From the IMG/VR virus record IMGVR_UViG_3300028048_000055, positions 64,001 through 128,000 of that record: a DNA stretch of 64,000 nt. The stretch is one strand, 5' to 3'. The stretch comes from a virus (lineage: Duplodnaviria; Caudoviricetes). The translations under genes and the position numbers were made by a program. The notes under the pieces were generated by a model. It was not told where the DNA came from. It saw only the letters and a program-made list of their open reading frames with translations, and made no database searches. Each line of letters opens with the position of its first letter. Position 1 is the first letter of the stretch. Below, piece after piece: positions 5,666 to 37,517 of the stretch.

Positions 5666-5673
5666 TATAAATA
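5666..5673 (+). promoter_or_regulatory. T4-type late promoter TATAAATA
   Basis: Exact consensus; also at 8126, 9363, 10166, 14576, 14919, 16467, 18269, 23096, 47232, 59749, 60701. Confidence 0.8.
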
Positions 5674-31985: not shown

Positions 31986-32258
31986 ATGGTTAGAATTAAA
32001 ATGAATATAAAGCCTGGAAAGAAGGCAGAATTTGTACTTATCGATGATTCAGAAGTAACACCTGGACTTTCTGAACAATATACTCGATTTACACAGAATA
32101 AGGCTAACTTTGAACAAGCATGGAATAATACAGTCAGTTATAGTGAAGACTTAGCTGCAAAGACATTAGGTCATTGTCTTTATTCATGCGGTTTTAAAAT
32201 CGTTGATATTGATCCAGAGACACGAACTATAACATTGGATGTGATTAAAGATGAATGA
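31986..32258 (+). CDS. Hypothetical protein; N-terminus resembles the tail-sheath C-terminal strand
   Basis: IKMNIKPGKKAEFV versus sheath-type I.IKP....EF. Confidence 0.55.
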   Translation: MVRIKMNIKPGKKAEFVLIDDSEVTPGLSEQYTRFTQNKANFEQAWNNTVSYSEDLAAKTLGHCLYSCGFKIVDIDPETRTITLDVIKDE

Positions 32259-32822: not shown

Positions 32823-33026
32823 ATGAAGTTCAAGGTAACATACACTGCTGTCAGAGAATTTGAAATTCCTGAAAATGCAACTGATGAAGAATACGATGCA
32901 ATGAAGGGCATTATCGTCGCCGCAATTGATGCGACAACTGTAACGCCGAACGATGTCAAGGTTGAAAGACTTGACGTTCCTGCAGAACCTCTTCCGGAAT
33001 ATAAAGTTAATAAGGATTGTGACTAA
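32823..33026 (+). CDS. Hypothetical protein
   Basis: AAGGAG RBS. Confidence 0.7.
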   Translation: MKFKVTYTAVREFEIPENATDEEYDAMKGIIVAAIDATTVTPNDVKVERLDVPAEPLPEYKVNKDCD

Positions 33027-33559
33027 TGACAATTACAGAAAAACACATTTTATTTTGGAGTGATTGGCCGAGCAATTTTGCTTGGGCTCCGATGAAGCTT
33101 AAGTGCTCTGATGATATTACCAGAGTTTTCTTTAGTTCTGAACAGTATTACATGCTCGAAAAGGCAATGTATTTTAATGATCTTACCATTGCTGATGCTA
33201 TTCTTCATCTTAAGTTTGATGATGAATATTCATATAATGCCAAGAAGCTCGGTCGTCGTGTAGCAAATTTTAACCAAGATAAGTGGAATGCAGTTTCTTA
33301 TGACATTATGCTTCGTGGTTGTCTTGCTAAGTATAGTCAGAATAAAATTCTGTTTGACAAGATTACTGACCCTGCTCTTAATGGTAAGAAGTTTGTAGAA
33401 GCTTCTCCTTATGATAAGATTTGGGGAATTGGCCTTGGTGAAGGTGATCCGCTCGCTGATGATGAATCTAACTGGCTTGGTGAAAATCGTCTTGGTAAGG
33501 TTCTTGACGAAGTTCGTCAGAAGTTGTTAGATGGCTATAAGGAAGAAATCAAGTATTAA
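33026..33559 (+). CDS. NADAR family (YbiA/DUF1768) ADP-ribosyl/N-glycosidase
   Basis: SNF, SSEQYYM.EKA, AKKLGR.V, KYSQN, VEASPYDKIWGIG, GENRLG. Confidence 0.95.
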   Translation: MTITEKHILFWSDWPSNFAWAPMKLKCSDDITRVFFSSEQYYMLEKAMYFNDLTIADAILHLKFDDEYSYNAKKLGRRVANFNQDKWNAVSYDIMLRGCLAKYSQNKILFDKITDPALNGKKFVEASPYDKIWGIGLGEGDPLADDESNWLGENRLGKVLDEVRQKLLDGYKEEIKY

Positions 33560-35016: not shown

Positions 35017-35424
35017 ATGGTTACACATCCAGTAAATCCAATGGGTACATTTAGATTTACATATGAAAATGGCATTCCATCAGATGTTGTTTATATGTAT
35101 AAAGTATATTGTTGTACTGATAATATTCCAGCAGAAGAAGATTTTGTTTCTATTTATACACCGGTTGAATATAGAGATATTCCAATGTATGTTTATGCAA
35201 AGGATAATTATATTCAGATAGATGTTAATTTTTCTGAAATGGAAAGACCAGTCTTGACACCAGAGCAGAAGAAAAGAATGGAAGAAGATAAAAAGACTAT
35301 AGCAAGAATTATCGGTGAAACTGATGATTATTATTCTGGTAAGATGTCATTTCCTGAAAGACTTTTGTATAAGTTTAAATTATGGAAAGCAAAATTATTT
35401 AATAAAGATGATTTAGGTTTTTAA
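35017..35424 (+). CDS. Hypothetical protein
   Basis: GGAG RBS. Confidence 0.7.
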   Translation: MVTHPVNPMGTFRFTYENGIPSDVVYMYKVYCCTDNIPAEEDFVSIYTPVEYRDIPMYVYAKDNYIQIDVNFSEMERPVLTPEQKKRMEEDKKTIARIIGETDDYYSGKMSFPERLLYKFKLWKAKLFNKDDLGF

Positions 35425-35434
35425 GGAGAATAAT

Positions 35435-35665
35435 ATGGCGGAAGAAAGAACAGTTATTCAAATTGATACTACTAAAATGACTCCTGCAGAAGCCAAAGAA
35501 TTGATGAATAATTTAAAGAAACAATTTTCTGTAAAGCTTTATTATGACGAAAATACTGGTGAAGTCATTAGAGCTGATAAACTTGGCGAAGGTGTCAAGT
35601 TTGAACATGATTATAAAGATGAAGCTAACGAAGATTTTCTGTTTTTAAAAAATGAATTTAAATAG
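35435..35665 (+). CDS. Stand-alone T4 gp20-like portal clip-region fragment
   Basis: AEERTVIQIDTTKM..KLYYDENTGEV..EDF aligns without gaps to gp20 APDRRVWYVDTGNM..VYDASTGKI..EDY; AAGGAG RBS. Confidence 0.72.
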   Translation: MAEERTVIQIDTTKMTPAEAKELMNNLKKQFSVKLYYDENTGEVIRADKLGEGVKFEHDYKDEANEDFLFLKNEFK

Positions 35666-36369: not shown

Positions 36370-36768
36370 ATGTATACTGGATATTTTGCAAAACTAAAAT
36401 CTTATGAAGAAGCTGGACTAGTTCCAGTCTCTATTGCTCTAAAGACACCAGATTGGTATCATGGTGCACAGTATAAAAAATTAGCACCTAAGTGGTCATT
36501 TTTTAGTGAATGGAAAAACGGTTCACATAAAGGTGATAATGATTATTATATGCAGCATTTTAAGACTGAAGTTCTTGATAATTTAGATCCAGAACAAGTT
36601 GTTAAAGAACTTGAAGGATTTACAGGTGTATCTCGGGATAGAATAATTTTAATATGTTATGAAAAACCTGGAGACTTTTGTCATCGTCATCTGGTTTCAA
36701 TGTGGTTAACAGTAAATCATATTAATTGTTTTGAACCGTCATATTTAACTCCAGTGGTTGACAAATAA
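36370..36768 (+). CDS. DUF488-family protein
   Basis: YTGYFA, YKKLAP, LICYEKPGDFCHRHLV. Confidence 0.8.
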   Translation: MYTGYFAKLKSYEEAGLVPVSIALKTPDWYHGAQYKKLAPKWSFFSEWKNGSHKGDNDYYMQHFKTEVLDNLDPEQVVKELEGFTGVSRDRIILICYEKPGDFCHRHLVSMWLTVNHINCFEPSYLTPVVDK

Positions 36769-37127: not shown

Positions 37128-37517
37128 ATGAGAAATAAGTTTACACCAGAATTTATTAACGACCTTGACGATAACGAAGTATTTGTTTTCGGCAGTAACA
37201 AGGAAGGTATGCACATTGGCGGTGCTGCACATTTTGCAATGCAGAGATTTGGTGCAGAATGGGGCAAGGGCGAAGGTCTCTATGGTCAGAGCTATGCTTT
37301 ACCGACTATGGACGATGATGATCCGAATTGTATTAAACCTTATGCTGATAGATTTATTCAGTTTGCTAAGGATCATAAGGAACTTACATTCTATGTCACT
37401 CCGGTTGGTTGTGGCATTGCTGGTTTTACACCTGAACAGATTGCACCATTCTTTAAAGATGCCCTTGATATGGATAATGTTATTCTTCCAGAAAGTTTTG
37501 TTGAGGTTTTAGGCTAG
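37128..37517 (+). CDS. A1S_2505-type phage protein (macrodomain-related)
   Basis: VFVFGSN.EG.H.GGAA, GQSYALPT, VTPVGCGIAG. Confidence 0.8.
   Translation: MRNKFTPEFINDLDDNEVFVFGSNKEGMHIGGAAHFAMQRFGAEWGKGEGLYGQSYALPTMDDDDPNCIKPYADRFIQFAKDHKELTFYVTPVGCGIAGFTPEQIAPFFKDALDMDNVILPESFVEVLG

Follow-up and report, generated by a model that had tools for sequence, protein, structure and literature searches.

A small phage gene apparently derived from the portal clip may encode a ligand of the large terminase

To our knowledge, all tailed phages and herpesviruses depend on docking of the terminase on the portal, and portals are among the targets of bacterial pattern-recognition immunity. In T4, the clip domain of the portal protein gp20 consists of residues 279–358, which form three strands and the helix alpha6; this domain lies exposed outside the capsid, and it is here that the large terminase gp17 attaches (PMC4493910). 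The clip sheet combines one strand from one subunit with two from its neighbour, and is the only main-chain inter-subunit contact in the T4 portal (PMC4493910). At the tip of the clip, N291, M292, R295, and K296 face gp17, and the double mutants N291A-M292A and R295A-K296A abolish packaging (PMC4493910). A 24-residue gp20 peptide, 288–311, is reported in PMC4493910 to bind gp17 and to inhibit packaging. On the side of host defence, Avs4 senses portal monomers (bioRxiv 2025.11.14.688446). Avs11 also senses portal proteins, and Avs1-3 sense terminase. A further sensor, DSR2, recognizes the tail tube, and the phage protein DSAD1, described as acting against it, exemplifies proteins that block such defences through competition with the structural trigger (PMC11087589). 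The first-pass annotation of the locus described here had taken as established that the clip is the region where terminase docks and that the portal triggers Avs4, and the respective papers bear out both statements.

The gene belongs to a giant, uncultured T4-like phage. It lies in a 64,000-nucleotide stretch of Caudoviricetes DNA (the window), which represents bases 64001–128000 of a 165-kb IMG/VR record with a CheckV completeness estimate of 40%. The features of the locus are listed in Table 1. The strong ribosome-binding site noted on first reading is present, with the AAGGAG overlapping the stop codon of the upstream ORF (35422–35424), and the GC content of the 76-aa ORF (30%) is native to the window (32%). 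The C-terminal 29 residues form a separate micro-protein family, which makes the ORF a two-module protein; we refer to its two parts as clip-N and the C-module. Clip-N comprises the first clip strand, the tip, helix alpha6, and the second strand with its TG turn.

Table 1. Coordinates in the window of the 76-aa ORF, its modules, and its upstream elements
Feature	Position	Strand	Basis or comment
76-aa ORF	35435..35665	+	ATG start, TAG stop; from ORF list
Shine-Dalgarno AAGGAG	35424..35429	+	5 nt 5' of ATG; read in sequence
Clip-N module, residues 2-47	35438..35575	+	homologous to T4 gp20 279-324
Equivalent of gp20 peptide 288-311, residues 11-34	35465..35536	+	alignment
C-module, residues 48-76, KLGEGVKFEHDYK...NEF	35576..35662	+	separate module
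Upstream ORF, 135 aa	35017..35424	+	ORF list

Both profile and pairwise comparisons relate clip-N to the T4 portal family. Positions 203–248 of the 433 in Pfam Portal_T4 (PF07230) match residues 2–47 of the ORF with an E-value of 1.1e-8 and a score of 34.8 bits, compared to the curated cut-off of 22.9 bits, and this is the sole Portal_T4 match in the 165-kb record. PHROG 213, ‘portal protein’, also matches the ORF (E 9.5e-8), and it scores 28.3 bits over residues 2–46 with an HMM of nine diverse portals. The ungapped alignment to T4 gp20 with about 13 identities, which the first-pass annotation had proposed, turned out to be exact, with 13 of 43 residues identical between residues 2–44 and A279–I321. 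Against classical T4-like portals, the local alignments of clip-N lie at z = 7–13 above shuffles. As the T4 clip runs from 279 to 358, the ORF covers its first half and lacks the second, with the inner clip loop and the channel loop. Whereas a T4-type portal has ~520 residues, clip-N holds 45 and is without wing, stem, or crown; as the full portal architecture (wing, stem, clip, and crown; ~500 aa) is lacking, the 76-aa ORF is a fragment homolog and not a portal. The earlier description as a free-standing portal-clip protein therefore stands as far as the profile and alignment match is concerned, but needs to be narrowed to half of the clip, joined to an unrelated C-module.

Compared to the T4 gp20 clip (PDB 3JA7, 6UZC), clip-N keeps D288, T289, M292, A297, and E299, and likewise M301, Y314, D315, T318, and G319. 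The T4 contacts N291, M292, R295, and K296 align to K14, M15, A18, and E19 of the ORF, such that the gp17-contacting R295/K296 are replaced by A/E, and the portal-invariant G290 is replaced by T. The peptide 288–311 has a full aligned equivalent within the mini-protein, which in addition holds both flanking strands; the peptide as described in PMC4493910 is synthetic, whereas the mini-protein is the product of a natural gene, with 6 of 24 residues identical to the T4 peptide. The mini-gene also differs from the T4 portal gene in its location in an accessory array instead of the head module, and its product in bearing a foreign 29-residue C-terminal module.

To collect the family, we searched 1.84 billion representatives exhaustively with HMMER and the 90% clusters with a profile. 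The window form was found in public assemblies as 32 variants (the exact sequence and 31 others), all of 76–77 aa, on contigs of up to 421,659 bp. Internal stops and indels were absent from all 16 close variants read, in which 15 variable sites fall in clip-N and two in the C-module; the commonest variable sites, 5, 17, 21, 24, and 25, lie around the tip and the helix start, the last four of them within the equivalent of the gp20 peptide 288–311. Elsewhere, free-standing relatives of 51–62 aa (P0007, P0009–P0019, P0021, and P0029; contigs up to 438,800 bp) are 43–53% identical to the window copy and stop (...TGQVLPA) exactly where its portal-like part ends. The family shares a pattern of ~45 aa, hh.[IV]DT..[ML]..A.A..[LF][MV]...K.[FY]...L.[YF]D..TG.V..A, with the same end position, to which the window ORF conforms, and the window ORF scores 97.8 bits against a profile built from the mini-protein alignments. 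Since a profile match to the T4 portal family and conservation as an independent ORF in relatives, the two points that the first-pass annotation had marked for checking, are both present, the finding survives, and we are highly confident that the 76-aa ORF is a real, maintained portal-clip-derived mini-protein. In a literature search, we found no paper describing clip mini-protein genes.

The clip-N module appears in several settings. In a GC-rich lineage (G007 and G008; 56% GC), the portal gene is followed by a gp23-type capsid gene and then by the mini-gene; the mini-gene has its own stop codon, a terminator with a 13-bp stem before it, and a hairpin after it, and its sequence is the same at both GC-rich loci. 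These free-standing mini-proteins have the same ~45-residue module and end point (...TG.V..A) as the window form. They stand alone, however, and adjoin portal and capsid genes, which the window copy does not, and among clip-N mini-proteins the KLGEGVKFEHDYK C-module is restricted to the window form. A zinc ribbon precedes clip-N in the 104–116-aa proteins P0020 and P0022–P0028 and at locus L056 of genome G002. The L056 ORF (L056:1456-1803 (-) = G002:C1:202364-202711) encodes 115 aa with a CxxC...CxxC zinc ribbon, which has a weak PHROG 1494 match, followed by clip-N, and this fusion is kept at 115–116 aa in 9 variants. In the 98%-complete genome G003, a clip mini-copy was undetected. P0006 (5919 aa) and P0008 (436 aa) were discarded as repeat proteins that score via summed weak matches, and P0046 (872 aa) as a cluster artefact without the motif. 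In the IMG/VR samples 3300028887 and 3300028914 (L034, L046, L057, and L058), the AT-rich giant and GC-rich mini-gene lineages co-occur.

The window copy scores 93–110 against the GC-rich mini-proteins and at most 82 against 14 portals, while the zinc-ribbon form and the form found as a C-terminal tail in genome G001 are more distant from it (score 63). For P0007, the best portal match is the own-lineage portal, with a score of 95. An origin of the mini-protein from a portal of the GC-rich-lineage kind, followed by spread, fits these scores, the segments being too short for a reliable tree.

Relatives of the window phage, reached via the CCA-adding-enzyme gene and the portal, are complete or near-complete phage genomes of 411–424 kb that carry T4-type portals and terminases. 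Genomes G001–G007 have one intact portal each, of 537–563 aa and with its own clip, and we therefore rejected a split or broken portal gene. The own-lineage portals (G001, G002, G003, G005, and L037) score 46–49 against clip-N (z ~4.5, ~28% identity), compared to 61–82 for the portals of T4, Aeromonas, Serratia, Vibrio, cyanophage, and Ochrobactrum phages and of G007. The own-lineage portal is thus the portal least similar to the window's clip-N, and a recent copy of the phage's own portal was rejected on these values. No longer protein in a set of 5.8 billion proteins shares enough words with the 76-aa ORF to score. The low score against the own portal, the lack of a longer relative, and the native GC content together indicate an old, ameliorated gene. 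Mimicry of the own portal's docking face is doubtful, because the own-lineage portal is the least alike and R295/K296 are A18/E19.

Relatives of the C-module occur as stand-alone micro-ORFs of 36–43 aa in G001 (43 aa) and on metagenome contigs, surrounded by other genes (L004:1507-1638, L014:709-819, L015:367-498, and L016:2911-3042; also L017, P0004, and P0005). Their family motif, LGEG[VI]KF[EQ]HDYK...NEY (KLGEGVKFEHDYK...NE[FY]), is present on many large phage contigs, and the micro-ORF often adjoins genes of the ‘DDAEGTPGASRQYTRF’ family. The C-module is found in one copy per genome, and is thus not a tag common to neighbouring genes; a search of the ESM Atlas with it retrieved nothing. 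Comparison with portals gave no significant likeness (hmmsearch ~1 bit, hhalign probability 0.4%), leaving the C-module unsupported by hmmsearch/hhalign as the rest of the clip (EDY, stem-helix start) or as another portal piece. The EDF of the C-module had been read as an echo of the portal EDY. This holds marginally against the own-lineage portals, where EDFLFLKNE compared to EDFFF[QSP]KDD gives p ~0.03 per comparison, uncorrected, but not against T4 (p 0.7). In variant P0003, found on 6 contigs of up to 214.8 kb, an in-frame deletion removes clip-N and joins the first ~88 residues of the upstream ORF to the C-module. The upstream 135-aa ORF itself has no Pfam or PHROG match; an IQID match to it comprises four residues and was treated as chance.

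The closest complete relative, G001 (424 kb), is without the 76-aa form. It carries instead a 308-aa ORF (L067:1465-2391 (-) = G001:C1:8647-9570) with clip-N as its C-terminal 50 residues, the tail being matched by the clip-N profile at an E-value of 8.6e-11. The first 257 residues are an intact-looking large-terminase ATPase domain in which Walker A, Walker B, and the C-motif are readable; the ORF matches Terminase_6N (E 1.9e-16) and aligns to T4 gp17 152–320. By our extrapolation of this alignment, its FLGS falls at about gp17 356–359, which we take to be the end of the ATPase domain. Clip-N stands in place of the nuclease domain. In all seven variants of this fusion protein that were read, the length is 308 aa and the tail is kept. 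G001 encodes its canonical terminase N-part in a separate 306-aa ORF, which scores 132 bits against gp17 compared to 95 bits for the 308-aa ORF; as judged from these alignments, the latter is a paralog of the canonical terminase ATPase domain. This fusion of a terminase-type ATPase to a clip tip is the strongest hint in the sequences to the partner of the mini-protein. The fusion could also be read as one bait for both terminase-sensing and portal-sensing defences.

The canonical terminase N-part itself (L077:1441-2361 (+), G001:185520 region; L076:1444-2364 (+) in G002) ends ...QQEYAC, followed by ~35 residues (LLGDEKITVRSEEG...GFLR, stop). This tail has the appearance of a short split-intein N-fragment resembling the AceL-TerL type.

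An AF2 model of the window ORF has a pLDDT of 48, with a helix at 17–30 and strands at 35–38 and 43–46, and its low confidence makes it unsuitable for fold searches. The model of P0007, built with a 36-row alignment, reaches a pLDDT of 77 and is predicted to contain an extended N-terminal segment, a helix at 22–37, and a hairpin at 40–51, an order of elements that agrees with that of the clip. Foldseek ranks the T4 portal chain second for the P0007 model, but at an insignificant E of 6, and VIA-align gave no Z of 2 or more for it.

In the window, the 76-aa ORF is one of several small genes packed closely together on the same strand. The ORFs at 33026–33559, 36370–36768, and 37128–37517 (+) encode a NADAR protein (E 1.9e-35), a DUF488-N3a protein, and a PHROG 2072 protein, respectively; the remaining neighbours have no family match in Pfam or PHROG. 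The cluster looks like an accessory or counter-defence array. A small paralogous gene family, recognizable by D[DS][AS]E[GV]TPG[AL]S[RE]QYTRF, is represented by one copy in the window (31986–32258 (+)) and by tandem copies in G001 (L004:908-1497). The T4-type late promoter motif TATAAATA precedes many ORF starts by 10–35 nt between 5.6 and 18.3 kb; it is found on the + strand at 5666, 8126, 9363, 10166, 16467, 18269, and 47232, and no copy lies on that strand from 23.1 to 47.2 kb, a stretch of 24 kb that includes the mini-gene. As the total count of TATAAATA is not above chance, it is the positions and not the number that are suggestive. This distribution suggests early or middle expression of the mini-gene.

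The first-pass annotation had proposed two candidate roles, a competitive inhibitor of terminase docking and a sensor decoy. Our main reading is that the mini-protein binds terminase, as a modulator or an inhibitor of docking, to which we assign a probability of about 40%. Its N-terminal 45 residues represent the first half of a T4-type portal clip that was copied long ago and has since diverged, and they are fused to an unrelated 29-residue module. As a soluble clip tip, it would occupy the clip-binding site on the ATPase domain of a large terminase, which may be the phage's own, that of the paralog, or that of a co-infecting phage, and the occupied site would modulate or block docking of the motor on the portal, like the gp20 288–311 peptide. 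The homology to the clip, the identity of this region with the gp17 docking site, and the precedent of the peptide as reported argue for terminase binding, as do the natural fusion to the apparent terminase ATPase paralog in G001, the head-module position of the mini-gene in the GC-rich lineage, and the maintenance of the gene (32 variants of 76–77 aa, native GC content, and mini-proteins that are mutually closest). However, the window clip-N is least like its own portal and has A18/E19 at R295/K296, the accessory array without a late promoter motif suits counter-defence equally well, clip-N is dispensable in some relatives (the P0003 deletion, and no mini-copy detected in G003), and the pLDDT for the window ORF is only 48.

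We rank terminase binding ahead of the next reading, in which the mini-protein is a candidate immune decoy or sensor blocker that shows the clip pattern to a portal-sensing STAND NTPase of the Avs4 or Avs11 type, which would be occupied or mis-engaged before real portal monomers appear. That both Avs4 and Avs11 sense portals is in keeping with this, as are the location in an accessory gene run that includes NADAR and DUF488-N3a and lacks late promoter motifs, the patchy distribution, and a mini-copy that keeps family-consensus residues better than the own-lineage portal does. The substitutions cluster at the tip and helix start (17, 21, 24, and 25) while the C-module is almost invariant, which also points in this direction, and the G001 fusion could equally be a double bait, because Avs1-3 sense terminase. 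A precedent of a kind is DSAD1, as described in PMC11087589, which is likewise a small accessory phage protein that could disturb the recognition of a virion protein; the candidate mini-protein belongs, as a fragment, to the very protein family that is sensed. On the other hand, a fragment that binds the sensor could activate it instead of blocking it, and in the GC-rich lineage the mini-gene is located in the head-assembly module and not among accessory genes. We regard a decoy as unlikely.

Less probable again is a factor directed at the portal itself, whose half-clip would pair with the complementary clip strand of a portal subunit. Bound in this way, it would chaperone or cap unassembled portal, or poison ring assembly, perhaps in a competing phage. 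The sharing of strands between subunits in the T4 clip (PMC4493910) would allow such pairing, the P0007 model leaves the first strand region unpaired, as if it needed a partner strand, and the mini-gene is near the portal gene in the GC-rich lineage. However, a portal-directed role leaves the fusion to the putative terminase ATPase paralog unexplained, and the window copy is poorly matched to the own-lineage portal. The least probable of the four readings, a non-functional scrap of portal recombination whose frame is open by chance and continues into a micro-gene, could account for the lack of the 76-aa ORF in G001 and the heavily rearranged region around it, for the P0003 variant without the clip part, and for the low-confidence fold (pLDDT 48), but we consider it very improbable given 32 variants that are all 76–77 aa, 16 of them read without an internal stop or indel, a 56%-GC lineage that keeps the same module boundaries at 43–53% identity, three further independent architectures bearing clip-N, a strong ribosome-binding site, and a native base composition. 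The probability left over from these four readings covers other functions.

The 45-residue module exists by itself as well as in fusions to a terminase ATPase paralog (as assigned above), a zinc ribbon, or a micro-protein. It is conceivable, at a little under even odds, that giant T4-like phages share a mobile ‘portal-tip’ module that regulates or attacks portal–terminase docking or its host sensors. If so, this would be the first known case of a virus-encoded soluble mimic of its own packaging gate, and a natural soluble copy of the docking tip would add a new class to the regulators or counter-defence proteins of phages. The clip-N family offers a ready set of natural variants for probing motor–portal binding, and the fusion to the apparent terminase ATPase paralog gives a concrete, testable partner.
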